A DNA stretch of 64,000 nt from Treponemataceae bacterium (lineage in GTDB: Bacteria > Spirochaetota > Spirochaetia > Treponematales > Rectinemataceae). Under the pieces are notes generated by a model. The model saw only the letters and a list, made by a program, of their open reading frames with translations. It was not told the DNA's origin and ran no database searches. The position numbers were made by a program, and so were the translations under genes. This document shows, in pieces, positions 22,119-51,450 of the stretch. The stretch lies in assembly GCA_963678065.2 (NCBI GenBank), contig CAXXVZ010000003.1, positions 576,001-640,000 of the forward strand, written 5' to 3'. Within the stretch, counting starts at the first letter, position 1; the number at the start of each line of letters is the position of its first letter.

Positions 22119-22388
22119 AGCGCAAAACCTCTCGCCTCTAGTGTGCCTACCGGAAAGTATCATCTCAAACATTTCTATCTACGTACGTAGAATAATGTCG
22201 GATTGCCGCAAGTGCATAGTAGTGAATTTATATACACGGATCTGTTCAGTCAGAGTCTGGATATCTTCATAAAACTCTCGAAACCGGATCGGAAAATCCA
22301 GGGCATTGTGGTGTCTCCTGCAGTTCAGCCCAACGCAACAGGTTAGTTCCAGCCAGCTTGAAACTGACCCGCACTTGCTGGACGCTTG

Positions 22389-23432: not shown

Positions 23433-23459
23433 AGAATGACTGTCTTTTCTGCCACTGTG

Positions 23460-24293: not shown

Positions 24294-24305
24294 GACAGTC
24301 TCCTT

Positions 24306-25589: not shown

Positions 25590-26914
25590 CAGAACCCTTC
25601 CCGCACCATCTGGCGGAAGATATCCTCTATTTTACCGAGAGCCACATCGAGAATCTCCTTGCTGTGCGCCGAAGTGATGCCGGAGTGCATGGGAGTCAAG
25701 CCGTCGCCATAGTCATGGAAGTACATGCCACTGCCTGTAGCGAGCTCGACGAATCTCCGAGCGGATTTTGGCCGGTAGAAACTGGCCGCTTCGCGGTAGT
25801 CATACGTCGCGTGATCCAAACCGAAAAAGAGTCCAAAGCGTGCCCCAAGACCAAGGAGGATCCCCTTGAGGCCAGTACTGGAGAAGAGCACGTTCACTCT
25901 TTCGTAGAAATAGTTGGCATTGAAGTTCAATCGCTCATAGAAACCAGGCTGATCCAGTACTTTCAAACCGGCGAGCCCTGCCATGACTCCCATAAGAGGG
26001 CCGGTATAGGTGCCGCTCATCACAACCGGTCCTATAGGGTTCAGGTGGCTCATCACTTCGTCCGATCCGGCCAAAGCGGCGATACCCATCCCGTTGCCCA
26101 GTACCTTGCCCAAGGTTGTCAGGTCAGGGGTTACGCCGTAATGCCCCTGAGCCGAACCGCGGCCCATGCGGAATCCTGACAGAACCTCGTCAAAGATAAG
26201 TACGATATTCTCTTTCTTCGTGATTTCACGCACCATCTGGAGGTAGGAAGGTCGCGGTTCAATGCAGCCTGCGTTGTACATGATCGGTTCCATGATGACA
26301 GCCGCGATTTCCCCCCGGTGGGCTTTGACAGTTCTTTCAAAAATTTCAATGTCGTTGAAAGGAATGACGATAAGAAGGTCATCCAGCTCAGGAACCATGC
26401 CTGCGGTGTCCCGTATTTTCTGTATCTCTCCGGACGATTCCACCGCTCCCAGTCTGTTGTGCCAGTTGTAAAATACAAATTCATGCATGCCATGGAAGTG
26501 GCCTTCAAACTTGATCACCTTGCGCCGGCCTGAATATTCGCGCGCCAGCCGCAGGGCCGCGAGGGTTGCCTCGGTTCCGGAATTGGCGAGTCGGACCTTC
26601 TGGGCGCAGGGAAGCATTGTGGATACCTGTTCGGCGAGTTCGGCGTGATAGGGTGATTCAAAATTGATGAAATATCCGAGCTCCAGACTTTTCTGCAGAG
26701 CCTCACGCATTGATGGATGATTGAACCCGAGGAGGGTAGCGCCGCTGCACGAGTGAAAATCGACCCACTCCCTGCCATCGACATCCTTCATGATGCAGCC
26801 GTCTGCCGACTCGAGGATGAGCGGTTTCTGAAGCACACGATGGTATCTGCCGCCTGCGGAGACGCCCCCAACCATGTAATTTTTTGCTTTCTGGAAAATG
26901 TCATCTGATCTCAT
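25589..26914 (-). CDS. Class III PLP aminotransferase, glutamate-1-semialdehyde aminomutase (HemL)-like
   Basis: NSGTEATLAALRLAR, KFEGHFHG, FDEVLSGFR, TTLGKVLG and SGTY motifs. Confidence 0.88.
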   Translation of the reverse strand: MRSDDIFQKAKNYMVGGVSAGGRYHRVLQKPLILESADGCIMKDVDGREWVDFHSCSGATLLGFNHPSMREALQKSLELGYFINFESPYHAELAEQVSTMLPCAQKVRLANSGTEATLAALRLAREYSGRRKVIKFEGHFHGMHEFVFYNWHNRLGAVESSGEIQKIRDTAGMVPELDDLLIVIPFNDIEIFERTVKAHRGEIAAVIMEPIMYNAGCIEPRPSYLQMVREITKKENIVLIFDEVLSGFRMGRGSAQGHYGVTPDLTTLGKVLGNGMGIAALAGSDEVMSHLNPIGPVVMSGTYTGPLMGVMAGLAGLKVLDQPGFYERLNFNANYFYERVNVLFSSTGLKGILLGLGARFGLFFGLDHATYDYREAASFYRPKSARRFVELATGSGMYFHDYGDGLTPMHSGITSAHSKEILDVALGKIEDIFRQMVREGF

Positions 26915-26938
26915 GCAATACCTCGCTTTTGCGGGTGG

Positions 26939-27766
26939 CTATCCTTTGACAGCCCCTGCGGTAAGTCCTGCGATAATGTGGCGTTGTGTCAGAAAGGCTA
27001 TGAGTAGAACAGGAAGCGTGATGATGATTGATGCCGCCATGAGGGCGCCCCAGTTGATCTGGGCATAGGAGACGAAATTGAACAATGCCAGAGGCAGGGT
27101 TTTTGTATTGCCGCCGCTCAGGACCATCGAGAATACAAAATTGTTCCAGGAAAATACGAAGGAGAGCAATGAAGCAGTTATGATTCCCGGACTCGCCAGC
27201 GGAAGCACGATCTTCGTGAAGGAATCAATAGTGTAGCAGCCGTCCACACGGGCAGATTCCTCGATTTCTCTGGGCATGGCATCGAAAAACGGAACCATTA
27301 TCCAGATGATGAACGGTAGATTGATCAGAAGGTGGCTCAGCGTCAGGGCAATGTAGGTATCGATCAGTCCGATACGCGAGAAGATTATGAACCAGGGGAT
27401 CAAGAAGGTGATGCCTGGGAAAAAACGGATTACGAGGATCACCATGCCGAACTTTTTTTGCTTGTATCGCGCTATCGCGTATGAAGCCGGCAGCCCGATC
27501 AACAAGCCGATGGCAGTGGAAAGAGTGGCGACTATCAGGCTGTTGGCGATTGGTTTCAAGAAGTCATAGCCGGAGAAAACCGCCAGATAGTTTTGAAAAG
27601 TCGGCGTGAATATGAAAAGATTCTTCATCGACTGTATCTGCACCTGGGTCTTGAATGACGCGAGCAGCATCCAGATGATGGGGAACAGTACGACGAGAAG
27701 AATAAGTGCCAGAGGAACATATGTGAGGGCTGTACGCTTTATGGATCTGATCTGCTTTGTGGTCAT
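26939..27766 (-). CDS. Carbohydrate ABC transporter permease (MalG-like)
   Basis: EAA loop PREIEESARVDG; C-terminal GLTAGAVKG. Confidence 0.93.
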   Translation of the reverse strand: MTTKQIRSIKRTALTYVPLALILLVVLFPIIWMLLASFKTQVQIQSMKNLFIFTPTFQNYLAVFSGYDFLKPIANSLIVATLSTAIGLLIGLPASYAIARYKQKKFGMVILVIRFFPGITFLIPWFIIFSRIGLIDTYIALTLSHLLINLPFIIWIMVPFFDAMPREIEESARVDGCYTIDSFTKIVLPLASPGIITASLLSFVFSWNNFVFSMVLSGGNTKTLPLALFNFVSYAQINWGALMAASIIITLPVLLIAFLTQRHIIAGLTAGAVKG

Positions 27767-27775
27767 GCGTTTCCC

Positions 27776-28666
27776 CTATGCCATGTCTTGCCGTTCGAGC
27801 TTATTCTTCAGGAAAAGCACGAGTAGGCTTACCGCAGTCACTGTTATCAGGAACAGGACGATCAACGCGGCTCCCCGGCCCATCTTGAAATAGCTGAATC
27901 CGAGCACATAGCCGAGAATGTTCAGGGTTTCAGAAGATTCGCCCGGGCCGCCTTGAGTCGTTGAGTAGATGATGTCATAGGTTTTCAAAGCGTCGATGAG
28001 CCGTATAAGCACCCCGACCAGTAAGGTCGGCAACACTTGCGGAATTGTTACGCGCGTCAGTATCTGGAATCCGTTCGCCCCGTCGATGCGGGCCGAATCG
28101 TAGGGATCCTGCGGCAGGATCGCGAGTCCAGCGAGAGAAATCAGCATTATTATGGGAGTCCATTGCCAGATATCGATCAGCATCAGCGAAAAGAGGACTG
28201 TTTTCCGCGAAGTGAGCCAGAGCTGGGGAGCGATACCCAGCCCGCCGAGGAGGTGATTGGCCAATCCGATTGTCGGCTCATAAATGAGGAGCCAAACCAT
28301 TCCCACAGCTACCGGTGTCGCCACCATCGGCAACAGGAAGATCGTCTTGGTCATATTCTTGCCGTGAAACTCCCTGTTAAGGAAGAGGGCGATGGCGAAA
28401 CCGAGTGTCGCCTCGATCGCCACCGCGCCGAAGGAGAAAACGAGCGTTCTGCTCATCGCTCCCCAGAAACGCGGGTCATTGAACAGACTCGCGTAATTCT
28501 TGAAACCGACCCATTTGGGCGTAGCATATGAACCAAGGTTCCAATCGCGGAAGCTCACGACAATAGTGGAGAGAAACGGAAAGGCAACCATAAGAATGAC
28601 GAATATCACCGCGGGCAGTGTGAATAGGAGCCGGATATTTTTCTCGACCCAGTCTTTGAACGCCAT
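27776..28666 (-). CDS. Carbohydrate ABC transporter permease (MalF-like)
   Basis: WVGFKNY, WQWTP, YDSARIDGA and TQGGPG motifs. Confidence 0.93.
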   Translation of the reverse strand: MAFKDWVEKNIRLLFTLPAVIFVILMVAFPFLSTIVVSFRDWNLGSYATPKWVGFKNYASLFNDPRFWGAMSRTLVFSFGAVAIEATLGFAIALFLNREFHGKNMTKTIFLLPMVATPVAVGMVWLLIYEPTIGLANHLLGGLGIAPQLWLTSRKTVLFSLMLIDIWQWTPIIMLISLAGLAILPQDPYDSARIDGANGFQILTRVTIPQVLPTLLVGVLIRLIDALKTYDIIYSTTQGGPGESSETLNILGYVLGFSYFKMGRGAALIVLFLITVTAVSLLVLFLKNKLERQDMA

Positions 28667-28760
28667 ATGTGCTGCTTTATTGTGCTTCAGATTGTGAGAG
28701 CGGCAGGATGATCGCTCACCCTGCCGTCAAATATTTCAACAATACAAAGTCTGCGATAAA

Positions 28761-30053
28761 TTATTTCTTTTCGCCATCTATCAGTTCCTGGAATTCCTTG
28801 TTAGCCTGTCTGGCCGCTTTCGCTACGTCTCCACCCTCGAATCCAACCAGGATTGGCATGCTCACAATGTCACGAGCCTCATTCACATTGATCACTCGTG
28901 GCCTGTCCCAGCCGACTCCAATGAGATTGCTTGCATTCACGACTTCAACCAGCTCTTTGGGCCAGTTCTTGGTGGATTCGGGGTTTGCCCACACCGATTT
29001 ACGAGCCCCTGAGTTGCCGGCAGCCTGCAACTGCATAACGATATTTTTGCTGGTAACCCACTTCACGAAGAGGGCAGCGGCGTCCTTTTTCTTTGAAAAA
29101 TTACTGATGCCGATTGCGCCAGAGCACACATTGAATGGCTTGGAACCGGCAGGGCCCGCCGGGAAAACCGCGAAACCGATCTTGTCGCCGACTATGGATT
29201 TGTCCGGGGCCACGACGTTGAGGTAGATCGCATCGGCGTCAGTGAACATGCCAGCCTTGCCTTGGGCCATCAGAGCGGCTGCTTCAGGCCAACTGAAGTT
29301 GACAATACCGGGAGGACCGTATTTGCGCAGGATATCTGTGTAGTACTTGAAGGCCGCAATAGCTTCAGGAGTATCGATCACGGCTTTGTCCCCGATGTTG
29401 AATTCACCACCGAAACTATGCAGATAACTGGAGAATTGGGTAACGGCGATATTCTTTTTTCCACGATTCACAATCGCGTAGAAGCCGTTGGCAGGGTCAT
29501 TGATCTTCGACGCCACCACCATCATCTCATCGAGTGTTTTGGGCGGTTTCAAGCCTGCCTTCTCCAAAACATCCTTTCGGTAGTAGAGAATCTGATGTTC
29601 CGTCGTTGTGGGCAGACCGATGAGTTTGCCTTCATAGGTCAGACTCTCGATCGTCCCGGAAGTGAAATCCTTGAGGTCAAAAGCCTGATCGCCTTCCAAA
29701 TAGGGGGTCAAATCGGCCGCCCACAGGTTCTTGGCAAAAAGCTTTGTTTCATTCAAGGGCCTGATGTAGACCAAATCGAGTGAGGAAGACCGGGCATTGA
29801 ATTCCACCGCAATCTTGTTGCTCATCTGGTCAGTTCCGTATTCCTCGAACTGAACGGTGATACCCGTGCTTTCTTTGAACTCGGGAAGAAGCAGTTTCAC
29901 CGCTGTCGTCCACGGATGGACCGCAGTAATAAACCGCAGTGTCGTTCCCGAGTACTGCTTACTGAGAGGCGAGGCCGTTTTTTGCGCTCCCGCCATCGGT
30001 AAGGACAGTGAAAACACCGCCATTGCCAAGAACAACGCCCTCATTGAATGCAT
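28761..30053 (-). CDS. Carbohydrate ABC transporter substrate-binding protein
   Basis: Signal peptide; LYYRKDVLEKAGLKPPKTLDE and QGKAGM motifs. Confidence 0.92.
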   Translation of the reverse strand: MHSMRALFLAMAVFSLSLPMAGAQKTASPLSKQYSGTTLRFITAVHPWTTAVKLLLPEFKESTGITVQFEEYGTDQMSNKIAVEFNARSSSLDLVYIRPLNETKLFAKNLWAADLTPYLEGDQAFDLKDFTSGTIESLTYEGKLIGLPTTTEHQILYYRKDVLEKAGLKPPKTLDEMMVVASKINDPANGFYAIVNRGKKNIAVTQFSSYLHSFGGEFNIGDKAVIDTPEAIAAFKYYTDILRKYGPPGIVNFSWPEAAALMAQGKAGMFTDADAIYLNVVAPDKSIVGDKIGFAVFPAGPAGSKPFNVCSGAIGISNFSKKKDAAALFVKWVTSKNIVMQLQAAGNSGARKSVWANPESTKNWPKELVEVVNASNLIGVGWDRPRVINVNEARDIVSMPILVGFEGGDVAKAARQANKEFQELIDGEKK

Positions 30054-30308: not shown

Positions 30309-30358
30309 TTGACAGATCATATTTCCCATAATATGGTAATGATTACCACAATATGGGA
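30309..30358 (+). promoter_or_regulatory. Promoter plus palindromic operator upstream of the IclR gene
   Basis: TTGACA(30309)-17-TATGGT(30332), overlapped by TCCCATAATATGGTAAT-G-ATTACCACAATATGGGA (15 of 17 positions inverted-match). Confidence 0.7.
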
Positions 30359-30364
30359 GTAACG

Positions 30365-31162
30365 ATGGACCGCAAACCATTAATCCAGTCAGTAGAACGT
30401 GCACTTGAAATCCTGGATCTCGTAGGGGACTCGGAGCATCCAATTGGCTCGACGCAGATTGCACAGATGTTGAATTTGCATGTAAGCACAACGAATAATC
30501 TCATTCGGACACTTTTCCGGAAAGGGTATCTGAATCAAACCAATGACGGGAAATACCATATTGGCCTCCAGTGTTACAGTCTTGGATCGCTGTGCGATCG
30601 GTGGGGAATACTGCGAGATATCGCACAGATACACATCGCAGAACTTTCGGATAAAACAGGGGACAATTCTGTCCTGGCTTCGGAGAGCGGAGGCAGACTT
30701 ATCACAATCGCGAGCGCAGAAGGTTCAGGTGCGATAGTGATTTCGAATCAACATCTTTTTCGTGATCATCTCCACTGCACGGCAGTCGGAAAGCTCCTCA
30801 TGGCACACAGTACCGCCGAGTTCATAACTCTGCTCAAAAAGACTCGCCCACTACAGCGTTTCACTGAAAAGACGATCACGGACTGGGAGTCTCTGACTGC
30901 CAACCTGCAGAAAATCAAAGACCTGGGGTATTCCGTGAATAGAGGCGAAGGCCTATTGAGCGTCGCGGCAGTCGCAGTGCCCGTACTCGACGCCAAAGGG
31001 CATCTCGTTTGCGCCCTGGGTCAGTCTTTTCCCGACTACTTCATAGAAACGAAACAGGTCAACCTGGCCGAACGCATCGAGCTGGTCAGCAAATATGCCC
31101 GTCTCATCGGGAAGGACTACTGCGATGCATTCAAACACAAGAAAGGAATCGAGCAATGCTGA
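30365..31162 (+). CDS. IclR-family transcriptional regulator
   Basis: IQSVERALEILD, STTNNLIRTL..GYL, HCTAVGKLLMA and GYSV..E...VAAVAVPV motifs. Confidence 0.93.
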   Translation: MDRKPLIQSVERALEILDLVGDSEHPIGSTQIAQMLNLHVSTTNNLIRTLFRKGYLNQTNDGKYHIGLQCYSLGSLCDRWGILRDIAQIHIAELSDKTGDNSVLASESGGRLITIASAEGSGAIVISNQHLFRDHLHCTAVGKLLMAHSTAEFITLLKKTRPLQRFTEKTITDWESLTANLQKIKDLGYSVNRGEGLLSVAAVAVPVLDAKGHLVCALGQSFPDYFIETKQVNLAERIELVSKYARLIGKDYCDAFKHKKGIEQC

Positions 31163-32220
31163 CAGCCGCAGATGTCAAGCGCGAAGCGATATTGTGCGGC
31201 GCAGACGATGTTGGCATCGGCGATCTTGGTCGATTCGACGGCGCGCCACAGGAGATGGATCCGCGTTATCTTTTCCCCGACGCAAAAAGCCTCATCTGTC
31301 TCATTTTCCGCATACCGCGCGGCCTCATCCGGGGTGTCGAGGAGGGGACTAACTTCTACCAATATCCTTCCATGGGCTATGGCGGCATCAATGAGGTGTT
31401 TGCGCCTACTGTCCTCTACGAACTCGGGCGGTATATCGAGTTGAATGGATTCGAGGCTGCGGTCTTTCGTAATGCGGGAGGGCGAGGCTCCGTTTCCGAC
31501 ATGACAGGGAAAAAAGAGCGTGAACTCTCGCCTGAACTCCATGGATCAGCTCTTTCGATCGGCTCTGAAACTACTCCAGTGGAACGTTCCCTCCAGGGTC
31601 TCCAATCTGTCAGGGTTGGCATACCCCCACCGGATGTATTCATCCACTTCCGCCTCGGCGCCTATATCTGCGGCCTTGGTGAGATCGGCTACAGCAAAAT
31701 GTTTCTCTCGTCGCGTTTCGGTCCATTGAACCGACAGGCTTTCATCCTTACGGATGCTCCTCTCGAACCGGATCCACTGTATTCGGGTCCAAAACTCTGC
31801 AACCGCTGCATGGCATGCGCGGTCGCCTGCCCGGGAAGCTGCATAAGCCGCAGCGAGGAAGTGAGCATCGAAGTCGCCCGGACGAAAGTCTCGTGGGGTA
31901 AACTCGACGAATGGAGTTGCTTCGGCTACTACATCGGCGCGGCGAAATCCTCGAATCCCTTCGTTAAGGACGAGATGTACGACAGTCTTCCGGGAGGCGA
32001 CTCATTGCGCCGCGGCGAGAAGCGCATCACGCCCGATGAGTATGCAGAACTCAATCGAAGTATCAGCGAGAGTTACCCAATAGAGCTTGGCGGATATAAC
32101 CCGCCTAAATGCGGAGGCTGCCTCCGCGCTTGTTATACATCCCTCGAGCGGCGCGGTGTCCTCAGTACCTCGTTCGAGAATCGGTTTCGTACAGCTCCTG
32201 CTTGGAAAAGGAAGGATTGA
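31156..32220 (+). CDS. QueG/reductive-dehalogenase-like 2x[4Fe-4S] protein, paralog 1
   Basis: GADDVGI, GAYICGLGEIG..FGPLNRQAFILTDAPLEPD, CNRCMACAVACP and distal C...CGGCLRAC. Start ATG 31156 is coupled to the IclR stop. Confidence 0.8.
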   Translation: MLTAADVKREAILCGADDVGIGDLGRFDGAPQEMDPRYLFPDAKSLICLIFRIPRGLIRGVEEGTNFYQYPSMGYGGINEVFAPTVLYELGRYIELNGFEAAVFRNAGGRGSVSDMTGKKERELSPELHGSALSIGSETTPVERSLQGLQSVRVGIPPPDVFIHFRLGAYICGLGEIGYSKMFLSSRFGPLNRQAFILTDAPLEPDPLYSGPKLCNRCMACAVACPGSCISRSEEVSIEVARTKVSWGKLDEWSCFGYYIGAAKSSNPFVKDEMYDSLPGGDSLRRGEKRITPDEYAELNRSISESYPIELGGYNPPKCGGCLRACYTSLERRGVLSTSFENRFRTAPAWKRKD

Positions 32221-32224
32221 GACT

Positions 32225-33235
32225 ATGGCTATAACGTCGGAGTGGTTGAAGCGGGTCGCACATGAATACGGTGCCGACCTTGTCGGGATCGGAGATGTCT
32301 CCCTATTCGAAGGGACTCCGAAGGAGCACGATCCGCGTTTTATTGCTCCTGCGGCGAAACGCATCATCGGGCTCGGGTTCAAGGTTCTCAGAGGCTCATT
32401 GCGCGGCATTGAGGAAGGAACGCAGTTCTACCAATACTCCGAGATGGGAGTCGTGCATATCGATGAAGTGTTCGCTCCCACCGTAGCCCGCCGGGTGGCC
32501 TGTGCGCTGGAAGATGCGGGCTACGAAGGGGTCCCGCTCCGGAGCGAACCTGACCGGGGCCCGCAAAGCGAATCCGGAACCAACCCCGAGCACGCTCCGA
32601 CGGTGCGTCTCGATGCGGTCCCTGTCGCCCCCGGCAAGCCGGCGCCCGATGTCCTCGTCGACTTCCGCCAAGCCGCCGTAATCTGTGGTCTCGGGGAGAT
32701 AGGGAAGGGGGGCTTCGTTCTGACAAAGGAGTTCGGACCTCTCCAGCGTTTTGTCTTTATCCTGACCGATGCCGCGCTCGATCCCGATCCTGTGGCGGTG
32801 GGCGGCCTCTGCGATGGGTGTGAAGCGTGTATGCGCGCCTGCCCCGGGAAAGCCTACCGCGAGCAGGTCCCGGAACACTTCATCGTACAGGGAACCGAAC
32901 ACGCATTCATTGATGTCGATCCATGGCAGTGCGCGTCATTCTATATGGGGGCCAATCCTGCCACGAATCCCTTCATGTCCGACATTCTCCTTGAAAAGTC
33001 ACCGTTCAAAAGCCATGCACTCACGGGTAACGTCCGGTTTGGCGAGAACGAGTTTCGTCCGCTCAAAGATTTTCTCGAAAGTGCCTATCCCGGCATGCGC
33101 TTTGGCTACAACGCGTCGATATGCGGACGTTCCTGTTGGAGGGCATGTCTCGTCCAGCTCGAACGACGAGACATACTGACTCACAAGTTCATGTTCCCTT
33201 TCCGAACGAAGCCTGAATGGGAGTTGTCCCGGTGA
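32225..33235 (+). CDS. QueG/reductive-dehalogenase-like 2x[4Fe-4S] protein, paralog 2
   Basis: GADLVGI, AAVICGLGEIG..FGPLQRFVFILTDAALDPD, CDGCEACMRACP and distal C...CGRSCWRAC. Confidence 0.8.
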   Translation: MAITSEWLKRVAHEYGADLVGIGDVSLFEGTPKEHDPRFIAPAAKRIIGLGFKVLRGSLRGIEEGTQFYQYSEMGVVHIDEVFAPTVARRVACALEDAGYEGVPLRSEPDRGPQSESGTNPEHAPTVRLDAVPVAPGKPAPDVLVDFRQAAVICGLGEIGKGGFVLTKEFGPLQRFVFILTDAALDPDPVAVGGLCDGCEACMRACPGKAYREQVPEHFIVQGTEHAFIDVDPWQCASFYMGANPATNPFMSDILLEKSPFKSHALTGNVRFGENEFRPLKDFLESAYPGMRFGYNASICGRSCWRACLVQLERRDILTHKFMFPFRTKPEWELSR

Positions 33236-34227
33236 AACTGTCCGTAGGCTACTCGCTCATGGAGCGTGGTCGTTTTCTCGATGCAGTCGACCAATATACC
33301 GGGTCTATCGGCGAGGTGTATTTCTCGTGGCCAGGCACTCCCTCCGGGCGCACCGATATTCGAGAAAGGGATCCTGAGTACATCCTCGCAAAGATCGAGG
33401 CGCTTGGTGCCGATCTCGCACGCTTCGGCTCCTCAGGCATAAGGCTCATTCTTCTTCTCAATGGTAGCTGTTACGGAGAACTCGCCCTGAGCGACGCACT
33501 TGCGGCTTCTGTCCTTGAGTCCATCTCTCGAGTTCTCGGAGCGGCCGGTCGGCTGGACGCGGTGACAACAGCCTCGCCCTTCATCGCCAGCATTGTCCGC
33601 GCAGCTTTTCCCTCTATAGAAATTCGGGCATCGGTCAATATGAGGGTCGGGACAATCGAAGCCATGGAGTACCTTGCCGAACGTTTCGATGGTTTCTACG
33701 TTCAAAAGGAGCAGAACAGGAATCTCGACATCCTTCGGGAGATGCGGGAATGGGCCGCTCTGAATGGGAAAAAAATCTATCTTCTCGCGAACTCAGGTTG
33801 CCTGAACTGGTGTCCAAACCAGGTTTTTCACGACAATCTCGTCTCGCATGAGCTTGGACTGCGCGGACTCACCCGGAAAGGTTTCGAACCCATTATGTGT
33901 CGGGCATATCTCGAGCGAAGCAAGGATTGGGCTCGCTTGCTTAGTTGCAGCAACTGGATACGACCTGAGGATGCGGACCGATATGAACCACTCGTCGATG
34001 GCCTGAAACTGGCGACTCGAATGCATGCCAGGCCCGATCTTGTGATCGCGGCTTACGCGAGACGATCTTTTTCCGGAAACGTACTGGATTTGCTGGAACC
34101 AGGTTTCTCTGACCTGCTCTATCCTTCCATCCTTCGGAACGAAGAATTTCCCGATGATTGGCAAAGTCTGGTCCGGGGAAAGGAGGTGGAAAATCTCTTG
34201 TCAAGGGTCATGAAAGTCCTCGCATGA
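33232..34227 (+). CDS. U32-family (peptidase-like, Fe-S) protein
   Basis: LLLNGSC, VTTASPF, EIRASV, LLANSGCLNWCP...H, distal C, WIRPED..Y and LKLATR motifs; GTGA overlap with the upstream gene. Confidence 0.72.
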   Translation: MKLSVGYSLMERGRFLDAVDQYTGSIGEVYFSWPGTPSGRTDIRERDPEYILAKIEALGADLARFGSSGIRLILLLNGSCYGELALSDALAASVLESISRVLGAAGRLDAVTTASPFIASIVRAAFPSIEIRASVNMRVGTIEAMEYLAERFDGFYVQKEQNRNLDILREMREWAALNGKKIYLLANSGCLNWCPNQVFHDNLVSHELGLRGLTRKGFEPIMCRAYLERSKDWARLLSCSNWIRPEDADRYEPLVDGLKLATRMHARPDLVIAAYARRSFSGNVLDLLEPGFSDLLYPSILRNEEFPDDWQSLVRGKEVENLLSRVMKVLA

Positions 34228-34273
34228 TTCACCGCGGGGGAAAATCATACGTTTGAGTAGGGAGGCGATGGGT

Positions 34274-35581
34274 ATGAAAAGATGGGCAATCGTCGTGCTG
34301 ATCGCACTGACGACACTGGCTTTCACGGCAATTCCGGCGGCTGCACAGGATGAAGGCTATGCGCTGACGGTATGGAAATTCGGCGGAGTTCGCATTGAAA
34401 AGGCATTTGCGGTGACGCGGGCAAATGAGTGGAATACGCTCCATCCCGACATGAAGGTGAAATGGGTAGAGTACGACTGGGGCGCCCGTACGGAAAAAAT
34501 CGTCAGTGCGCTTTCAAACGGTCGCTTGCCCGACATCATCGTCGTGGACACTCAGAGCATCCCGGACTTCGCTAATATGGGCGTCATCAAGGCTATAAGC
34601 GACCTGGACGCAGGCTACGTCGCGAAATGGAAAAAGTTATTCGTACCGGAAGCCTTCGACCTCGGCTACTACGGTGGGAAGTACTACGGGTTCTCGACCT
34701 ATGTGGATATCGCGACCTTTCTCGCGTATAACACTGAACAGGTCCGGAAGGCGGGGCTGGTCGACGAAGAGGGCGATGCGACACCCCCCCGCACATGGGA
34801 CGAACTCATTTCCTACTGTAAAAAGATCCAGTCAAAAGGTCGGATGGCTATAGCACTCTCCTGCACGCAGAATGTATGCGACGTCAATATGCTCGAGGGC
34901 ATAGCGTACGCAAACGGTGGACGCTGGCTCGACGAGAAAGGCAACATCGCTGTGAACCAGGCGGGATTCGTCGACGCTCTCAGGCTCTACAAGACGCTGA
35001 GCGAGTACGCATTGCCTGGCTTCATCGAGTCAAACTACCGGGACAATGCAGTTCAATTTTTCAATAAGCAAGCCGCCATGTATCCGGCCCTCTCATGGGT
35101 CGGCGTGTTCAACACCGAACTGCAAGTTCCAGTGGATTTCTCGTACCGAATGACGGTTTTCCCGACAAACCCCAAGCCTACGGGACGTTTCACGCCGGTG
35201 AGCGGCATCATGACCGGCACCTTCTGTCCTATGATCACAACAAATTGTAAAAACAATGCTGTCGCCCTGAAATTCATCGACTTCTGGACTGAGGACAAGA
35301 GTCTCCTCGCCTGGGATGGTTCAGTGCAATTCGGACGCGTTCCAACGGGAGTAGTGGCCTGGAAAGGCAAGTCGATCGGGAAATACTGGCCAGATCTCAA
35401 AAAGAAATATGATGAGGGAACCCTTTTCAGGGGCGTTCAGCCCATGCCCGCATTCCCCGGCCTGAGCTCCGGTCAGACCTACCTCGCCGAGGCGATGCAG
35501 GAGGTGCTTCTTGGCGTATCCGAACCGCAGGCCGCGCTTGACAAAGTCGCGACCAGACTCAAAGCGGTGATGAAGAAATAA
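34274..35581 (+). CDS. Carbohydrate ABC transporter substrate-binding protein
   Basis: Signal peptide ending AAA-QD; LPDII, LAYN..VRKAGL..PPRTWDEL motifs. Confidence 0.9.
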   Translation: MKRWAIVVLIALTTLAFTAIPAAAQDEGYALTVWKFGGVRIEKAFAVTRANEWNTLHPDMKVKWVEYDWGARTEKIVSALSNGRLPDIIVVDTQSIPDFANMGVIKAISDLDAGYVAKWKKLFVPEAFDLGYYGGKYYGFSTYVDIATFLAYNTEQVRKAGLVDEEGDATPPRTWDELISYCKKIQSKGRMAIALSCTQNVCDVNMLEGIAYANGGRWLDEKGNIAVNQAGFVDALRLYKTLSEYALPGFIESNYRDNAVQFFNKQAAMYPALSWVGVFNTELQVPVDFSYRMTVFPTNPKPTGRFTPVSGIMTGTFCPMITTNCKNNAVALKFIDFWTEDKSLLAWDGSVQFGRVPTGVVAWKGKSIGKYWPDLKKKYDEGTLFRGVQPMPAFPGLSSGQTYLAEAMQEVLLGVSEPQAALDKVATRLKAVMKK

Positions 35582-35656
35582 GTATTCGAGTACGTGGCGG
35601 ATCGGTTCTCCCTCGAAAGGGGGAGGCCGGCCGAACCGGATCGAGGCAGGGGAGCC

Positions 35657-36565
35657 ATGAACCGTCAAAAGAAAATATTTGCCTTTGTATGTATCGCGCC
35701 GGTAGTGCTTTTCGTTGTGTCCTTCATCATCTATCCGGTCGTCGATCTGTTCAGGTTGAGCATGACGGACAAGGTTCTCACAGACCCTGGGAGCGGTGGT
35801 TTCGTCGGTCTCGCCTCGTATGTCCGGGTATTTTCGGACAATGTAACCTTCCTCGCTCTCAAGAATACTCTTGTCTACGTGGGAGGAGGCGTGGCCCTTA
35901 CGCTCGTACTCGGACTCATCGCCGGGCTGGTCCTGAGCGAGGATAGCCTCATGACAAAAATTACCACTGGTCTCATTCTGATTCCATGGGCTTTGCCGCC
36001 CGTCATCATTGCTTCAGTGTGGAAATGGATGCTCCATCCCCAGCTCGGTGTCATCAACGACCTTCTTGTGAAAACCGGGATCCTTGCAAGTCCGGTTCCT
36101 TTCCTCAGCAAGCCGGGCACAGCACTGTATGTCCTCACTATCGTGCTCGCGTGGCGGCTTTTCCCCTTCGAGGGGATAATGCTGGCAGCTGGAATGAAGG
36201 GTATCCCGATCGAGCGGTATGAGGCCGCTCTGGTTGACGGGGCGAATGGCTTCCAGCGTTTTCGGTTCATCACACTGCCAGGGATCAAGTCCCTCATATT
36301 GACGACGACAATTATGAATACGGTCTGGATACTGAACAGTATCGCGCTGGTACTCATCATGACCGGCGGTGGACCGCTTCACTACACCGAGCTGCTTTCG
36401 ACCCTGATCTATAAAACCGGATTCCAGCATTATCGCTTTGGAGAGGCTTCGGCCCTGTCGGTCCTCAACTTCTTGATCATTCTGGCTCTCACAATGATGT
36501 ATCTGCGTCTGTTCAGGGATAGATCGAAGCACATGATCGCGGCCAAAGCGGGAGGCGCCCGATGA
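35657..36565 (+). CDS. Carbohydrate ABC transporter permease (MalF-like)
   Basis: FVGLASY, IPWALP, YEAALVDGA and MTGGGP motifs. Confidence 0.93.
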   Translation: MNRQKKIFAFVCIAPVVLFVVSFIIYPVVDLFRLSMTDKVLTDPGSGGFVGLASYVRVFSDNVTFLALKNTLVYVGGGVALTLVLGLIAGLVLSEDSLMTKITTGLILIPWALPPVIIASVWKWMLHPQLGVINDLLVKTGILASPVPFLSKPGTALYVLTIVLAWRLFPFEGIMLAAGMKGIPIERYEAALVDGANGFQRFRFITLPGIKSLILTTTIMNTVWILNSIALVLIMTGGGPLHYTELLSTLIYKTGFQHYRFGEASALSVLNFLIILALTMMYLRLFRDRSKHMIAAKAGGAR

Positions 36566-37419
36566 GCAATCGAAAGGTTTCAGCGCGCACGGCGGCACGA
36601 CGGCAGGGACGTAACCTGCTCTGTATAGTCATTCTTCTGATCGTCCTCTTCCCCTTTCTCTGGATTTTGGTTTCTTCGTTCAAAGGAATCGCCGAAGTCC
36701 AAAAAGTACCGATCGAGTACATTCCGAAGAATCCGACGCTCGAAACCTACAAGTCCGTACTGTTCGACTACAGGAATGGAAGCTGGATCAGCTATCTCCT
36801 GAATAGCCTCAAGATTGCCGTTATCACGACCCTCATTGTGACATTCCTGTCGGCCCTCAGCGGATATGCATTCTCGCGCATTCATTTCAAAGGCGCAGAT
36901 GCGCTCCTCATCCTTCTACTCGTCACCCAGATGTTTCCCGGTCCCTCAATACTCATCCCTTTATACGGAATGATGGACCGTTTGAAGCTCGTGGACACGC
37001 ATTTTGCCCTCATTCTCATCAATATGGCATTTACGCTACCATTCGCCGTTTGGATGTCGATGGGCTGCTATGAAAACATCCCGAACGATATGGAAGAGGC
37101 TGCATATATCGACGGTTGCAGCGTACTCAAGGCGTACTGGCTTATCGTTTTCCCTGTTTCAAAAATCGGTCTCGTCGCAGTCGCCCTTTACACCTTCATC
37201 ATTACCTGGGCCGAGTATATCTTCACTCTTGTAATCCTTGAATCGAAAGAAAAAGCGACAGTATCGCTGAAACTGGGCGCCATGGTCTCCGAGATTACCG
37301 TTCATTGGAATGAAATCAGCGCTGCTACCATAATTGTCTCTCTGCCTCTTCTTGTTTTCTTCCTCTGGGCACAGCGGTACTACGTAAGCGGCGTTATCGC
37401 AGGAGCAGTAAAGGAATAA
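36562..37419 (+). CDS. Carbohydrate ABC transporter permease (MalG-like)
   Basis: IPNDMEEAAYIDG; C-terminal GVIAGAVKE. Confidence 0.93.
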   Translation: MSNRKVSARTAARRQGRNLLCIVILLIVLFPFLWILVSSFKGIAEVQKVPIEYIPKNPTLETYKSVLFDYRNGSWISYLLNSLKIAVITTLIVTFLSALSGYAFSRIHFKGADALLILLLVTQMFPGPSILIPLYGMMDRLKLVDTHFALILINMAFTLPFAVWMSMGCYENIPNDMEEAAYIDGCSVLKAYWLIVFPVSKIGLVAVALYTFIITWAEYIFTLVILESKEKATVSLKLGAMVSEITVHWNEISAATIIVSLPLLVFFLWAQRYYVSGVIAGAVKE

Positions 37420-37566
37420 AGTTGAAAGGAATTGATAAGCTCCTTCGCTTCTCTTCCATACATGTCGACACATGTCGACGGTTCCCAAAGACTTAAGTCA
37501 TGAAGAAGTCCTCCAGACAGGGAAACGGGTCCAAGGCCGCATTCACCAGACCTTTTCCACAGTAAA

Positions 37567-37702: not shown

Positions 37703-38326
37703 ATGAAGCGGGAAGAAGTCTACGTTTTCTTGTGCAATTTGGCGGAAGGAATAGCTGAAACCTTCGGTCCGAACTGCGAGACCCTCATCCACGACCTGAG
37801 TGTTCCGGATCATCCGATATTGAAGATATGCAACAACGGAGTTTCGGGAAGGGAAGTCGGATCAACCGAGGATATCTATGGAGGCGAGTTCGACCCCGCC
37901 ATGGAGAGGCCATTCATAGGATCCGATTATGTGAATCACCTGGTAATCACGAAAAAAGGCAAGAAGGTGAAAACGTCGACATGGGTGCTGAAGGGCGACA
38001 GCTATCGCTTCGGGTTCGGCGTCAATTACGACTTCACCGATATGGAGGCCATGACCAGAACCCTGGAGTCCTTCATTCGCGTCAACTCGGATCTTGAAGA
38101 GGCGATTACCGAAGACAACAAGGGCAATCAGCTGGAACTCAAAGTCAAAGCCTGCATCGATGCGATGGGCAAGCGGGTAGATGAAATGACAAAGCAGGAT
38201 CGCCTCGAGATCATCAGGCGGCTGCAGGGCATGAACATATTTCGATTCCAGAAGGCGGTTCCCTATGTCGCCGAAAAGCTGGAAGTGTCGCGCTACACCG
38301 TCTACAAGTATCTCAACGAAGCCTGA
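37703..38326 (+). CDS. YheO/DauR-like PAS-HTH transcriptional regulator
   Basis: FGPNCETLIHDL..ICNNGVSGREVG and AVPYVAEKLEVSRYTVYKYL motifs. Confidence 0.92.
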   Translation: MKREEVYVFLCNLAEGIAETFGPNCETLIHDLSVPDHPILKICNNGVSGREVGSTEDIYGGEFDPAMERPFIGSDYVNHLVITKKGKKVKTSTWVLKGDSYRFGFGVNYDFTDMEAMTRTLESFIRVNSDLEEAITEDNKGNQLELKVKACIDAMGKRVDEMTKQDRLEIIRRLQGMNIFRFQKAVPYVAEKLEVSRYTVYKYLNEA

Positions 38327-38338
38327 GGGTAGGGTGCC

Positions 38339-39718
38339 ATGCTGCAGCGCGACGAGTTGAACCTGATACTGCATAGGGCCCTGTCTTCAGGCGGAGATTT
38401 TTCCGAGCTGTTTTGGGAAGACCGGCGGGACACGAACATTCGCTGTGCAAAGCGAATGTTCGGGGGCATCACCTCCCTCCACATCCACGGGGCTGGCATC
38501 TACGTGCTGAAGGGTACCCGCAGCGTATATGTCCACACCAACGACACTAGCTTGGGCGGGCTCGTGCGGCTTGCCGAGCGGGCGGCCGATCTTCTCCCGC
38601 CTATGACCCCTTCCCGGCTTCCGGATATCCAATTCTCCCCCCACAGATACCCGACTCCGACTCCTGTCGAGATCTGGCCTCACACGGTCGACTTCGGCAG
38701 GAAGATCAAGATACTGAAAGAGATGGACGGGGCTGCAAGAGAGGCCGGAGGGGTCCGGAATCTCAACCTCGTGTACTTTGATTCGAACCAGCATATCCTC
38801 GTCGCGAACAGCGAAGGCCTGCTGACGGAAGACGACAGGGTCAGGACACGGGTCCGTCTGGATGCGACGGTCGAGGTCGGCACGGAGTCGCTCTTCGAGT
38901 TCAACGATTTCGTGGGCCCCTGCGGTTTCGAGCTGTTCGAGGGCGACTACGAGGCTTTCGCCCGGGGCCAGGTCGCTTCGATGACAGCCAGGCTCAAGGC
39001 CAGGCCCGCCGAATCCTGCGTCGTGCCGGTAGTGATCGAAGGGGGGAACGGGGGCGTGCTGTGGCACGAGGCCTGTGGCCACCCGCTCGAGGCCGAGAAC
39101 ATCGCCGTCGGATACGGGGAATTCGCCGGAAAGCTTGGGCAGAAGGTCGCCTCCGAAAAGGTAACGCTTGTCGACGACGGCGGCATCCCGGGGATGTACG
39201 GGTCGGAGGCTGTCGACGATGAGGGCCACCCCACCAGGAAGAACCTGCTCATCGAAAACGGCATTCTCAAGAGCTATCTCTGCGGACGGAAAGGTGCCCG
39301 CCTTTTGGGCATGGAGTCGACAGGGAGCGGCAGGAGGCAGAGCTACTGCTTCGCGCCGGCTTCCCGCATGCACAATACCTACCTTGCCGCCGGGGAAGAT
39401 GACGAGGAGGAGATGATCCGGTCCATGGATGAGGGCCTGTACGTCAAGGAATTGGGAGGCGGGGACAGCGGCGTCGAGTTCTCGATCGAGGTGAAGGAAG
39501 CCTATTGGGTCAGGAACGGATCGATCTCCCATCAGGTGAAGGGCATCACCTTGAGCGGGAACAGCATGGAGATGATCAAGCGCGTGGATCGGGTCGGGAG
39601 AATACTCGTGCCTGAAAAGGGGTCGTTTTGCGGCGCCTCTTCGGGATTGGTCCCCACCACAGCCTTCCAGCCGCGCATCCGGATTTCCGGAATGACGGTA
39701 GGCGGTACAAAACGATGA
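38339..39718 (+). CDS. tldD: TldD metalloprotease subunit
   Basis: GGDFSELFWED, HEACGHPLE (HExxGH), DDEG, TGSGRRQSY...RMHNTY and C-terminal Cys (SFCG). Confidence 0.9.
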   Translation: MLQRDELNLILHRALSSGGDFSELFWEDRRDTNIRCAKRMFGGITSLHIHGAGIYVLKGTRSVYVHTNDTSLGGLVRLAERAADLLPPMTPSRLPDIQFSPHRYPTPTPVEIWPHTVDFGRKIKILKEMDGAAREAGGVRNLNLVYFDSNQHILVANSEGLLTEDDRVRTRVRLDATVEVGTESLFEFNDFVGPCGFELFEGDYEAFARGQVASMTARLKARPAESCVVPVVIEGGNGGVLWHEACGHPLEAENIAVGYGEFAGKLGQKVASEKVTLVDDGGIPGMYGSEAVDDEGHPTRKNLLIENGILKSYLCGRKGARLLGMESTGSGRRQSYCFAPASRMHNTYLAAGEDDEEEMIRSMDEGLYVKELGGGDSGVEFSIEVKEAYWVRNGSISHQVKGITLSGNSMEMIKRVDRVGRILVPEKGSFCGASSGLVPTTAFQPRIRISGMTVGGTKR

Positions 39719-41073
39719 CCGACATGACAGCGTTCCAGAAGGCCTTTGCCTCCCTTCCGCGTGGAGCCGTGGAAGCAGAAGTGAATGCCGAAAGCCATAG
39801 AATCGGCCAGGTGGAGGTTCACGGTGGAGCCGTGACCGGCGCCGACCGCTCCGAAGATGCGGCGCTGTACCTTCGGGTTTCGGGAGACAAGACGGGGTAT
39901 TCCTACACCCAGGATCTCCACGACGATCCCGTGAAGGTTCTGCGCGAAGCCTATGAGAACGGCCGGTTTTCCGAAAGCTCCTCGCCGGACGAAATCCACC
40001 GGGGTCCAGGCGCCGTCACCGTGGACCTCGGCCATATCGAGGCTGAACTCGATATCGATTCGCTCAGTTCTTATGGCCAGGCCTTCGAGCAGGATCTTTG
40101 CGCCTTTGACTCCAGGATATCCGAGGTATTCCTCTCCCTGCGGGCCGAGACGATCGGGATGCACACGGTCAATTCGCATGGCCTGGATGTCGGCTCGACG
40201 CGGCCCCTGTACATCCTGACGGCCGTGGCCAACTCCGGAAAGGGAGGCCGCCTGTATACGGCGAGCTACAACAGGACGGCCTCGGCCCTGGACCGTTTCA
40301 GCGTCGAGGATTTCGGCCACAACCTGGTGGAGATGCTGGAAAGCCAGTATGACCCGAAGCCTTTCCGCTCGGGTTCCTATAAGGCCATCCTCCACAGGAA
40401 CGTCGTCTACAACATCATGTCCACAGTTTGGCAGCTCTTTTCCGGCCAGCGATACCTGGAGGGTTCATCCCTGTTTTCGGGGAAGCTGGGCGGCAAGGTC
40501 GCCGCCGATTGCCTCAGGGTGAGGGACTATCCCTCCCGTCCGGACAGCGGCTTCGACATTGCCTGCGATTGCGAGGGCAGTTCGGGGGGAGTCGTCGACC
40601 TGCTGGATCGCGGCCTCTTCGTGGGCCTCATGCATAACCTGGCGACGGCCAAAGCTCTCGTGGCTAAACCGACGGGGAACGCCGGGCGCCGGCCCCTCCT
40701 TTCCGGGAACATCCCCACCGCCATCCAGGTAACGCCGCGAAACCTGTGCATCGAACCGGGCTTGCGCGGCCTCGGCGAGATGGTCGAAGGTCTGGAGGAC
40801 GGGATCCTCGTCACGGCAAGCTTCGATGTCTTCCATTCCATCAACATAGCCTCAGGAGCCTTCAGCATTCCATGCAAGGGCCTTGCCGTACGAAATGGGA
40901 GGCGGGAATCGGCTACAGGCCCTCTCGTGCTTACCGGCAGCTTGGGGGGCTTGCTGAAGGGAGTCGAGGAGGTCGGAAGGGATTTTTATATCGGGACCAT
41001 GCTGGCTCTGGACAACTACGGGATCGGAGCCTGCAGCCTGCAGGTCAATGAATTGAGCATCAGCGGGGCCTAG
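39715..41073 (+). CDS. pmbA: PmbA/TldE partner subunit
   Basis: Lacks HExxH; SLFSGKLGGKVA, DCEG, TGNAGR, N+ASGAFS motifs; ATGA overlap with tldD. Confidence 0.82.
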   Translation: MTDMTAFQKAFASLPRGAVEAEVNAESHRIGQVEVHGGAVTGADRSEDAALYLRVSGDKTGYSYTQDLHDDPVKVLREAYENGRFSESSSPDEIHRGPGAVTVDLGHIEAELDIDSLSSYGQAFEQDLCAFDSRISEVFLSLRAETIGMHTVNSHGLDVGSTRPLYILTAVANSGKGGRLYTASYNRTASALDRFSVEDFGHNLVEMLESQYDPKPFRSGSYKAILHRNVVYNIMSTVWQLFSGQRYLEGSSLFSGKLGGKVAADCLRVRDYPSRPDSGFDIACDCEGSSGGVVDLLDRGLFVGLMHNLATAKALVAKPTGNAGRRPLLSGNIPTAIQVTPRNLCIEPGLRGLGEMVEGLEDGILVTASFDVFHSINIASGAFSIPCKGLAVRNGRRESATGPLVLTGSLGGLLKGVEEVGRDFYIGTMLALDNYGIGACSLQVNELSISGA

Positions 41074-41131
41074 AGCGACCGAATCACTACAAGGCCCGCT
41101 TATAAGAGTTCTTGATCAAGGAGGAACTGCT

Positions 41132-42739
41132 ATGATGAAACGATGGCTGATCATTCTCACAGTCTGTGCCCTGGCCGTGAACCTGGCGGGCGCCCAAGGG
41201 GCAAACGACGGAAGCAACACGATCCTGAAGGTGGGTTGGCCCTACGAACCGGCCAGCATGGACCCGCACAGGGCAAATGAGGACGCCGCCTACAATGCAC
41301 TGCGGATGATGGTGGAAGGCCTTGTAAGGAACGTCAACGGCGAGGCAGTCCCGGGCATCGCCGAGTCCTGGGAGGTATCGGCCGACAACAAGGAGTATAC
41401 CTTCCACCTTCGCAAAAGCCGTTTCAGCGACGGCAGCCCCGTGACGGCGAAGGATTTCCAATACGGCTTCTTCAGGCTCCTCGACTCCTCGAAGGCTTTC
41501 GCGAAAGCCAACTCCGCCTTTGTCATCAAAAACGCGGAGGCATACTACAAGGGCAAAAGCAAGGCTGAAGATGTCGGCATCGAGGTGAAGAACGACTACA
41601 CCCTGAAGCTTTCCCTGGCCGTGCCGACCTTCCCTCTGGTATTTTCCGACTGGCCCTTCAGCCCGATGAGCAAGGCTTTCGTCGAGGCCAAGGGGGCTGT
41701 CTACGGATCCGAGGCTGCAAATCTGCTCACCAATGGCCCCTTCACCCTCAAGTCCTGGGACCATGATTCGAAGCTGGTTCTCGTCAAGAACGAAAACTAT
41801 TGGGATGCCCGCTCCATCTCTCTTGCCGAGATCGACGCATTCATCAATGCGGCAGGAGATACGGCGGTCGACATGATGCTGGCCAGGCAATTGGACCTCG
41901 TCGAACTCAGCAACCGCAACCAGGTCAAGACACTCACGGACAAGGGCTTTGCCGTGGAGTCCTACGCATCCAACTATCAGTTCCTCCACGTCAACCACAA
42001 GGGCAAGAACGAGAAGACTGGCCGGTTCCTTTCGAACGCCAATTTCCGCAAGGCCCTCAGCTACGCGATAGACCGCCAGGCCCTGGTATCGACCGTGTAC
42101 ACGACCTCAACCCCCTCGACGAGGCTCACCGCACCGAACGAGCGGGGCGTGAAGGGTCGATTCAACCTCGAGTATCCATACACGGGCTTCCAGGTTGACG
42201 ATAACCCCGCGAAGGCCAGGGAGTACCTCGGCCTTGCCTTGAAGGAACTGGGACTCGGCGCGTCCGATATCCCCACCTTCACGATGCTCTGCTTCGATTC
42301 CCAGGGCAGCCTCATGGCACTGCAGGCCATCCAGGACATGCTGAAGAAAAATCTCGGCGTGACCTGCGCGATAGACGCCCAGCCCATACCTTCCATGATC
42401 GCCAAAGTCTACGCGAGCGACTACGATTTGTGGAAGGGCGGCTCCTCGCTCGGCAAGATCGACTGGCTCGACGATATCGCAAAATCCTACCTGAGCAATG
42501 CCGGCGCCCCGTACAACTACAAGAATGCAGCTTTTGACTTCCTCTATCAAAAGGCCTCCATGGCGACCAACTGGAAAGAGCGAAAAGACAGGATGTTCGA
42601 TCTTGAAAAGTATTATTGCGACAATGTGGTCGACCTTCTCCTGAATTGGCAGCAGGTATATGTCGTCTACAACCCGAAACTCGGTGGTATGTACATGGCT
42701 ACGTATCTCGACTATTCGCAGGCGGACTTCAAGAAATAG
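41132..42739 (+). CDS. oppA: Oligopeptide ABC transporter substrate-binding protein
   Basis: PGIAESWEVSADNKEYTFHLR..FSDGSPVTAKDF, NGPF and FRKALSYAIDR motifs. Confidence 0.9.
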   Translation: MMKRWLIILTVCALAVNLAGAQGANDGSNTILKVGWPYEPASMDPHRANEDAAYNALRMMVEGLVRNVNGEAVPGIAESWEVSADNKEYTFHLRKSRFSDGSPVTAKDFQYGFFRLLDSSKAFAKANSAFVIKNAEAYYKGKSKAEDVGIEVKNDYTLKLSLAVPTFPLVFSDWPFSPMSKAFVEAKGAVYGSEAANLLTNGPFTLKSWDHDSKLVLVKNENYWDARSISLAEIDAFINAAGDTAVDMMLARQLDLVELSNRNQVKTLTDKGFAVESYASNYQFLHVNHKGKNEKTGRFLSNANFRKALSYAIDRQALVSTVYTTSTPSTRLTAPNERGVKGRFNLEYPYTGFQVDDNPAKAREYLGLALKELGLGASDIPTFTMLCFDSQGSLMALQAIQDMLKKNLGVTCAIDAQPIPSMIAKVYASDYDLWKGGSSLGKIDWLDDIAKSYLSNAGAPYNYKNAAFDFLYQKASMATNWKERKDRMFDLEKYYCDNVVDLLLNWQQVYVVYNPKLGGMYMATYLDYSQADFKK

Positions 42740-42837
42740 AAAAGTCATTTCAGAAAAAAACGTGGCGTCAGCCGCCGGATTCCATGATCAGGGCCGGCGG
42801 CCGCTTACGTCGAGGGAAAGGGGGCGGTGGACAATCG

Positions 42838-43752: not shown

Positions 43753-43759
43753 GGAAGGA

Positions 43760-44692: not shown

Positions 44693-44693
44693 C

Positions 44694-46719: not shown

Positions 46720-46794
46720 GCCGCCCGCGAGCTGAAACGCGACAATCCCGAGATCCCTCGGCTGGTCGAAGGCCATACCTGGAGAAGCGTCTAT

Positions 46795-51325: not shown

Positions 51326-51450
51326 GGTTGGCGCTCCTTCCGAAACGGGAGAGCTCAGATTGAGAGCGTCCCGTCCGCTTGTTTCGGGAATTACAGCATG
51401 TTGTAAATCATGGGGGCGCAGGAGTAGGTCTCCGCGCTCCCCGCCCTGAA

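Follow-up and report, generated by a model that had tools for sequence, protein, structure and literature searches.

A recurrent module of QueG/RdhA-like and U32-like proteins in a spirochaete operon, with an inferred role in cobamide-dependent reduction

To our knowledge, the established reactions of class III cobalamin enzymes comprise only the reduction of an epoxide in tRNA and dehalogenation. The structural work on QueG describes an active-site Tyr conserved above the corrin in this superfamily, with a DYH motif and Asp130 in QueG and a Tyr246/Asn272/Arg305 set in PceA (RdhA), of which the Arg305 equivalent is absent from QueG; it assigns such Tyr, Asp and Arg-type residues to proton transfer, states that class III enzymes lack a cobalamin sequence motif, and predicts further families (PMC4646009). 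For NpRdhA, Y426 and K488 have been named (PMC10463259). A CX6CX15CX3C Fe-S motif is characteristic of the U32 oxidases and hydroxylases TrhP, RlhA and UbiU/V (PMC11574389), which belong to a superfamily of 12 subfamilies (PMC5727448), most of them described as uncharacterised (PMC10990095). Here, we have analysed 64,000 nucleotides of a Treponemataceae bacterium (GCA_963678065.2, contig CAXXVZ010000003.1, positions 576,001 to 640,000), in the following referred to as the window, in which one operon joins an IclR-family regulator, two QueG/RdhA-like paralogs (QG1 and QG2), a U32-like protein, and parts of an ATP-binding cassette (ABC) importer (Table 1).

The unit that is conserved between genomes consists of one or more QG genes, the U32-like gene and an IclR or AraC regulator. 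It is a real and widespread enzyme module built of new branches of two known superfamilies, which is apparently undescribed and for which a function can be inferred. The best explanation that we can offer, and which we regard as about equally likely to hold or to fail, is that the operon encodes a cytoplasmic reductase dependent on a cobamide and 2x[4Fe-4S]; with the U32-like protein as its probable partner, this reductase would cleave a C-O bond of a small, probably sugar-derived molecule, which the ABC transporter would import in the lineage of the window.

Fold, clade and active site of the two paralogs

QG1 and QG2, which are 40% identical, both contain the segments GADxVGI and GLGEIG..FGP..R..ILTD..L.PD as well as eight Cys in two groups (Cys215/218/221/225/255/319/322/326 in QG1), confirming what a preliminary description of this DNA had noticed; the last Cys group is spaced C-X2/3-C-X3-C and holds no Pro. 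Membership in the QueG/RdhA superfamily, as proposed there, has been borne out by the predicted fold of QG2 (predicted local distance difference test, pLDDT, 90), for which RdhA and QueG have been found as the best Foldseek matches (E 7e-9 to 1e-6). Structural comparison with VIA has given Z 15.7-16.9 and a root-mean-square deviation (rmsd) of 2.8-4.0 A over 206-231 residues, with an aligned span of 1-335, in which the QueG structures 5d6s and 5d08 reach Z 16.2-16.6 and PceA (4uqu, 8q4h) and the catabolic NpRdhA (4ras) Z 15.7-16.9, followed by the B12 protein MMACHC at Z 9. On this model, the paralogs are predicted to combine a B12-binding nitroreductase-like domain with a bacterial ferredoxin domain for 2x[4Fe-4S], as in the class III cobalamin enzymes.

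Within this superfamily, both paralogs stay below the cut-offs of the described families, with 43 bits for QG1 and 34 bits for QG2 against the RDH profile (TIGR02486, cut-off 160) and 21 and 29 bits, respectively, against the QueG profile (TIGR00276, cut-off 200). The profile and phylogeny check suggested earlier has placed them with neither QueG nor RdhA, as a FastTree phylogeny of 52 rows and an IQ-TREE phylogeny of a 31-row subset have both resolved three groups, the QG family (100/98 in IQ-TREE), QueG (99/96) and RdhA (98/92). Judged from these alignments, QG1 and QG2 belong to a third, unnamed clade, a status that is relative to the rows included, namely QueG proteins above the cut-off (usable open reading frame, ORF, from 12/14 loci) and RdhA-profile matches from 13/14 loci, part of them below the cut-off, with the short, weakly matching and uncharacterised QueG-like proteins left aside. 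The window genome's own QueG-like gene (L183) has grouped with the QueG clade.

By sequence alignment alone, the active site of QG1 appears to combine features of QueG and RdhA. The columns aligned with the DYH motif read GYG in QG1 and GVV in QG2, so that the motif is absent; Tyr75 of QG1 is aligned with the Tyr of the QueG motif and with the RdhA Tyr, Asp160 lies one column off the QueG Asp at a position where PceA has Asn, and the family Arg (Arg193 in QG1) is aligned with PceA Arg305 and with NpRdhA Lys488, the residue differing in the K488Q variant. The RdhA-type pair of Tyr and Arg305/Lys488 equivalent is complete in QG1, and QG2 has the Arg only; QG2 keeps Asp142, Arg175 and the eight Fe-S Cys and shows Val in the Tyr column. 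Among 209 domains of the QG family, Tyr75 is kept in 172, Asp160 in 199, Arg193 in 206, and the first five Fe-S Cys in 207-209. QG1 shares the Tyr with QueG, and the QG proteins have an Asp close to where QueG has its catalytic Asp, but they differ from QueG by the missing DYH, by the Arg at the RdhA position that the QueG paper reports as lacking in QueG (PMC4646009), by their separate clade, and by being multi-copy, regulator-linked and U32-partnered. The eight Fe-S Cys, the paralog expansions and the Tyr-Arg pair are in common with RdhA, from which the QG proteins are set apart by their length of only 330-355 aa, by their Asp in place of Asn272, by an Arg-rich RG..RG.EEGT segment, and by a start at the first core helix with no signal peptide seen (judged by eye); likewise, no rdhB has been seen, and the operon ORFs leave no room for such a small gene between them.

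These likenesses could be explained by a set of cytoplasmic reductive dehalogenases that act on natural organohalides in catabolism or detoxification. RdhA proteins are the best matches in both sequence and structure, QG1 retains the PceA Tyr-Arg pair, and the expansion into paralogs with one regulator each resembles rdhA sets, of which cytosolic members are described as often lying near IclR/MarR regulators (PMC12219181). Yet the scores of 34-43 bits against a cut-off of 160, the separate clade and the QueG-type Asp speak against it, record labels mark many hosts as assemblies from gut and rumen, and the U32 partner is left unexplained, which makes dehalogenation decidedly unlikely in our estimation.

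The U32-like barrel and its linkage to the QG genes

The naming of the fourth operon protein as U32-like has held up in its predicted model (pLDDT 92), the best match of which is Mk0906 (5d88; Foldseek E 7e-9; VIA Z 19.3, rmsd 3.0 A, 222 residues; next match Z 13.1). The model points to a divergent, U32-type (Mk0906-like) TIM barrel, which may belong to one of the 12 described subfamilies. Its score against Pfam Peptidase_U32 is 16 bits (cut-off 22.4), and profile comparison with one of the genome's canonical U32s gives a weak match (E 0.0007, probability 27%); a PDB sequence search with the U32-like profile has returned nothing useful, and the ESM Atlas only clusters of hypothetical proteins, one of them 20% Peptidase_U32. 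Two canonical U32 genes are found elsewhere in the window genome, both with HGALC-X6-C..C-X3-C. Unlike these and the U32 hydroxylases, the operon protein has the spacing C-X109-C-X3-C-X28-C (C80, C190-X3-C194, C223) together with two His, is tied to QG genes, and has no prephenate genes seen nearby. As the canonical CX6CX15CX3C motif is absent from it, the O2-independent hydroxylation that had been associated with U32 proteins in the preliminary description cannot be assumed. Three of its four Cys are aligned with ligand positions of canonical U32s, and all four are conserved in 66 diverse full-length relatives (Cys80 in 62, Cys190 in 64, Cys194 in 63, Cys223 in 64), as are His200 (60/66) and His206 (61/66).

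The linkage between both families has been followed from either side. In the best 80 among 564 U32 loci confirmed from GTDB genomes, a QG gene lies on the same strand within 400 bp in 70, farther away in 2, and is missing in 8, of which 3 are cut short. By their record labels, the loci come from Bacillota, Planctomycetota, Armatimonadota, Lentisphaeria, Kiritimatiellia, Chloroflexota, Bacteroidota, Spirochaetota and Omnitrophota, so that the QueG-like and U32 pairing, whose recurrence the earlier reading had left to a gene-neighbourhood check, does recur across many phyla. Seen from the QG side, the best 80 loci out of 498 from metagenomes comprise 37 with a U32 gene and 43 without one. In 50 U32-carrier genomes selected from the 80, all counts being those of incomplete genomes, the QG family has been found in 49, with a lopsided copy number of 170 QG versus 61 U32 matches and up to 13 QG copies per genome. 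In the window's phylum (301 genomes), U32 has strong matches in 3 genomes and QG in 4, including those 3; one genome of this phylum (G264) holds a lone U32 gene and QG genes scattered over six loci, 5/6 with their own AraC or IclR gene. The 201 genomes of the Lentisphaeria class (the class of G309, Victivallaceae) divide into 86 with both families, 14 with U32 only, 8 with QG only and 93 with neither, as compared to about 47 expected with both under independence. Natural fusions of two QG domains are known from L022, L026, L062 and L086, with similar genes of 760-785 aa. A fusion between QG and U32 has been looked for in 150 representatives and rejected, since two matches and a long ORF in L115 look like frameshifted read-throughs.

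Taking the conserved Cys and their alignment with canonical ligand positions into account, one may ask whether the barrel itself is the catalyst, as an Fe-S oxidase, hydroxylase or dehydratase, with the QG proteins acting mainly as electron-carrying subunits or sinks in which the cobamide is optional. U32 hydroxylases are described as needing an electron acceptor (PMC10990095), and QG paralogs differ in the Tyr and in one Cys, as would fit such a role. However, the diversity resides in QG rather than in U32, with up to 13 copies per genome, many with their own regulator and no U32 gene, the active-site Tyr/Asp/Arg are kept in QG, and neither chorismate mutase nor DAHP synthase has been met among the scanned neighbours (55 cluster representatives; 97/102 immediate neighbours). 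We regard a catalytic U32 as unlikely.

Both parent families act on RNA according to the respective reports (PMC4646009, PMC5727448), and MMACHC is structurally related to the QG model, which would be in line with RNA modification, modified-nucleoside salvage or cobamide processing in the manner of QueG, TrhP/RlhA or MMACHC. Against this, the DYH motif is lacking, no RNA-binding extension has been seen in the proteins of 330-355 aa, a separate bona fide QueG is encoded in 14/50 host genomes and canonical U32s in the window genome, and the distribution is patchy, multi-copy and regulator-linked. A function of this kind is very improbable.

Regulators, transporter and the proposed reaction

Genes within 3 kb have been counted at 40 QG + U32 loci that extend at least 3 kb to both sides. 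AraC-type regulators are present at 20, IclR at 9 and either type at 28 loci, and the closest relatives of the window IclR (32-54% identity) adjoin QG genes of the window's type. CUT1 transporter genes are near only 4 of the 40 loci, others having MFS (3), SSF (2) or family-5 solute-binding protein (SBP) genes (2) or none; a PF12831 flavin adenine dinucleotide (FAD) oxidoreductase occurs at 3. Therefore, the transporter is not part of the core but exchangeable among loci, and forms a real part only of a narrow spirochaete-type cassette. In the Spirochaetaceae locus L005, all seven genes follow one another as in the window; the SBP there is an ortholog (71% over 208 aa), and a FAD oxidoreductase has been added. 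Indirect evidence comes from the four best non-self SBP matches, whose contigs (10,313, 387,061, 4,356,794 and 5,378,709 bp) have the same lengths as contigs of top QG2 and U32 matches. The SBP has not been found in 60 relatives, and more distant SBP relatives occur in 8/400 genomes. The importer that the preliminary description had counted as part of the system thus stays with it in the lineage of the window, where the linkage is conserved, and drops out for the family as a whole.

More distant SBP relatives of 36-40% identity (L199-L207, 9 regions) are accompanied by one or two UroD/MtaA/CmuA-like genes and sulfatases instead of QG/U32, a set that recurs and is itself uncharacterised. Such UroD-fold genes, confirmed by profile in 5/5 regions scanned, bring anaerobic O-demethylation into view as a special case of the reductive C-O cleavage proposed above, in which an O-methylated sugar or a related ether would give up its methyl group to Co(I) in QG, with activation of the substrate or discharge of the methyl-cobalt falling to the U32-like barrel. 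Fucosidase, rhamnosidase and xylanase neighbours would fit such substrates, and UroD-like genes flank the divergent operon of the window, L005 and 9/160 loci. However, they are found within 3 kb in 0/40 well-flanked loci, their MtaA/CmuA scores do not exceed 90 bits at cut-offs of 235-244, the loci share no conserved methyl-acceptor enzyme, and we know of no demethylating class III enzyme. In sum, demethylation appears quite unlikely.

The more general reductive C-O cleavage would proceed on the pattern of QueG and RdhA. A base-off cobamide would be converted through the two [4Fe-4S] clusters to Co(I), the formation of which requires a low potential. Following the proposal for QueG (PMC4646009), Co(I) would attack a substrate carbon, and Tyr75/Asp160/Arg193 would protonate the leaving oxygen. 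The natural two-domain fusions suggest that QG paralogs work in pairs, so that QG1 and QG2 may act together, with a different role for the Tyr-less QG2. As paralogs have expanded under separate regulators, QG is suggested to set the specificity, and each paralog or pair may answer to an inducer and a substrate of its own. The U32-like protein, tightly linked and lower in copy number, looks like a shared partner that would provide electron supply, reactivation or the next step via a Cys-bound metal centre. A direct redox couple between QG and U32 is attractive, because the acceptor needed for U32 hydroxylation is reported as still to be identified (PMC10990095) and class III redox partners are described as little known (PMC4646009), but it is not assured, as a high-potential oxidant is expected for U32 hydroxylation (PMC10990095), opposite to the low potential for Co(I).

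Regarding cobamide supply, the window genome encodes CobS and several B12-binding proteins. B12-binding domains are present in 49/50 hosts, but do not discriminate them, because 12/14 controls carry them as well. These data are compatible with the use of B12 without showing it.

Several observations weigh against the proposed reductase and its U32 partner. CobS has been detected in only 23/50 of the incomplete carrier genomes, no cobalamin riboswitch has been found in the window or in 5 loci, the binding of cobamide and Fe-S by QG proteins is presumed by analogy, and QG2 lacks the active-site Tyr. Even with at least 1.2 kb on both sides, 14/80 QG loci are devoid of U32, several QG genes of G264 sit amid housekeeping genes, and the genome counts are to be discounted in part, as kin are not independent. 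In the Lentisphaeria class, U32 is often multi-copy, and tandem arrays of a close, lower-scoring U32 sister group have appeared with no QG gene in 4 opened genomes of the 14 with U32 only. These arrays comprise 3-5 U32-like paralogs (L239:6795-12797, L240:7143-10644, L242:7270-10702, L241:6329-9575); three have MetH-like genes nearby and two precede glycosyltransferase-like genes, as named from N-terminal sequence only. Finally, neighbour genes are varied and often encode glycoside hydrolases, sulfatases, esterases, sugar-type transporters and Gfo/Idh/MocA oxidoreductases, which favours a sugar-derived substrate, but the loci have neither a transporter nor a downstream catabolic enzyme in common; the sugar link may be due to chance, given hosts rich in carbohydrate genes.

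Operon layout, further observations and significance

The gene order and tight spacing described earlier have been confirmed, with all seven genes on the forward strand, overlaps of 7 nt (IclR/QG1), 4 nt (QG2/U32) and 4 nt (between the permeases), and a gap of 4 nt between QG1 and QG2; an ABC ATPase gene is absent from the operon.

Table 1. Genes and candidate control elements of the operon in window coordinates.
Feature	Coordinates	Strand	Remark
Candidate operon promoter	30309..30337	+	sigma-70-like TTGACA-17-TATGGT
Candidate IclR operator	30324..30358		35-bp palindrome, 17-nt arms, 88% complementary, covers -10 box; putative function
IclR-family regulator, 265 aa	30365..31162	+	operon gene 1
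QG1 (paralog 1), 354 aa	31156..32220	+	QueG/RdhA superfamily, unnamed clade
QG2 (paralog 2), 336 aa	32225..33235	+	predicted class III cobalamin-enzyme fold
U32-like protein, 331 aa	33232..34227	+	predicted TIM barrel
Family 1 (CUT1) SBP, 435 aa	34274..35581	+	lineage-specific accessory
CUT1 ABC permease 1	35657..36565	+	alternative GTG start at 35594
CUT1 ABC permease 2	36562..37419	+	

Position is the sole argument for the candidate promoter, with 8 sigma-70-like sites counted versus 5.2+-2.1 in shuffles. No palindrome like the candidate operator has been found upstream in 5 related loci, and an operator shared between them is not supported. Contigs of an independent DNA run bridge QG2-U32 (32168-34121) and SBP-permeases (34186-37437), and these junctions are therefore not assembly artefacts. 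Near-identical contigs from two metatranscriptomes of one study cover parts of iclR, QG2, U32, SBP, the first permease and the divergent SBP, with mainly short partial matches for a control stretch, which is a hint at transcription of the cassette that contigs alone cannot show. Acquisition by transfer has no case from base composition, as the GC content of the cassette (0.541) ranks at the 13th percentile among 749 windows of the genome.

On the reverse strand, a divergent operon (21450-30053) encodes an SBP, two permeases, a class III aminotransferase, a LarA-like nickel-pincer racemase/epimerase (306 bits, below cut-offs), an amidohydrolase, a UroD-like protein and a GntR regulator. It is a second uncharacterised catabolic set, and has not been co-located with the QG/U32 module in 5 genomes tested. 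The genes at 37703-49211 (YheO-type PAS/HTH regulator, TldD/PmbA pair, peptide ABC transporter, aminotransferase, amidohydrolase) look like an ordinary peptide-use operon, and the reverse strand at 50255-54324 encodes a PFL-like glycyl radical enzyme, which at 694 aa is short for its family, together with its activase and a downstream 399-aa gene lacking a Pfam match.

Distant U32-like genes have also been encountered in other contexts. In 3/3 opened genomes of the same phylum, one lies directly upstream of an oxidosqualene-cyclase-like gene that is followed by isoprenoid genes (L208:7072-10444 in G291, L209:7805-11206 in G218, L210:7548-10892 in G283). The cyclase-like gene scores 717 bits against TIGR03463 (cut-off 851) and is above the cut-off of TIGR01787; O2-independent squalene epoxidation is a possible function of the pair, on which no paper has been found in a literature search that covered few subscription papers. 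At L165:1351-3714, another such gene is convergent with a type III polyketide synthase-methyltransferase fusion.

A literature search of the same coverage has found no description of the QG + U32 gene set, in agreement with the preliminary description, which knew of no such pathway. The published grouping of RdhA-like proteins distinguishes four groups, and U32 goes unmentioned in the portion that treats them (PMC12219181), as do QueG and U32 in the corresponding portion of PMC10418091. In this module, a well-separated third class III clade combines a hybrid-type active site with a genomic partner that stays the same, and the module has been met in roughly half of the 201 genomes sampled from the Lentisphaeria class. 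The window version carries its own SBP and IclR, which are two independent handles on the substrate. In the widest, and in our opinion doubtful, interpretation, the QG family would be a third functional branch of class III enzymes with a U32-type Fe-S redox partner, and would give polysaccharide-degrading anaerobes an O2-free route for breaking C-O bonds of modified sugars, such as ether bonds, with each paralog adapted to a different sugar.

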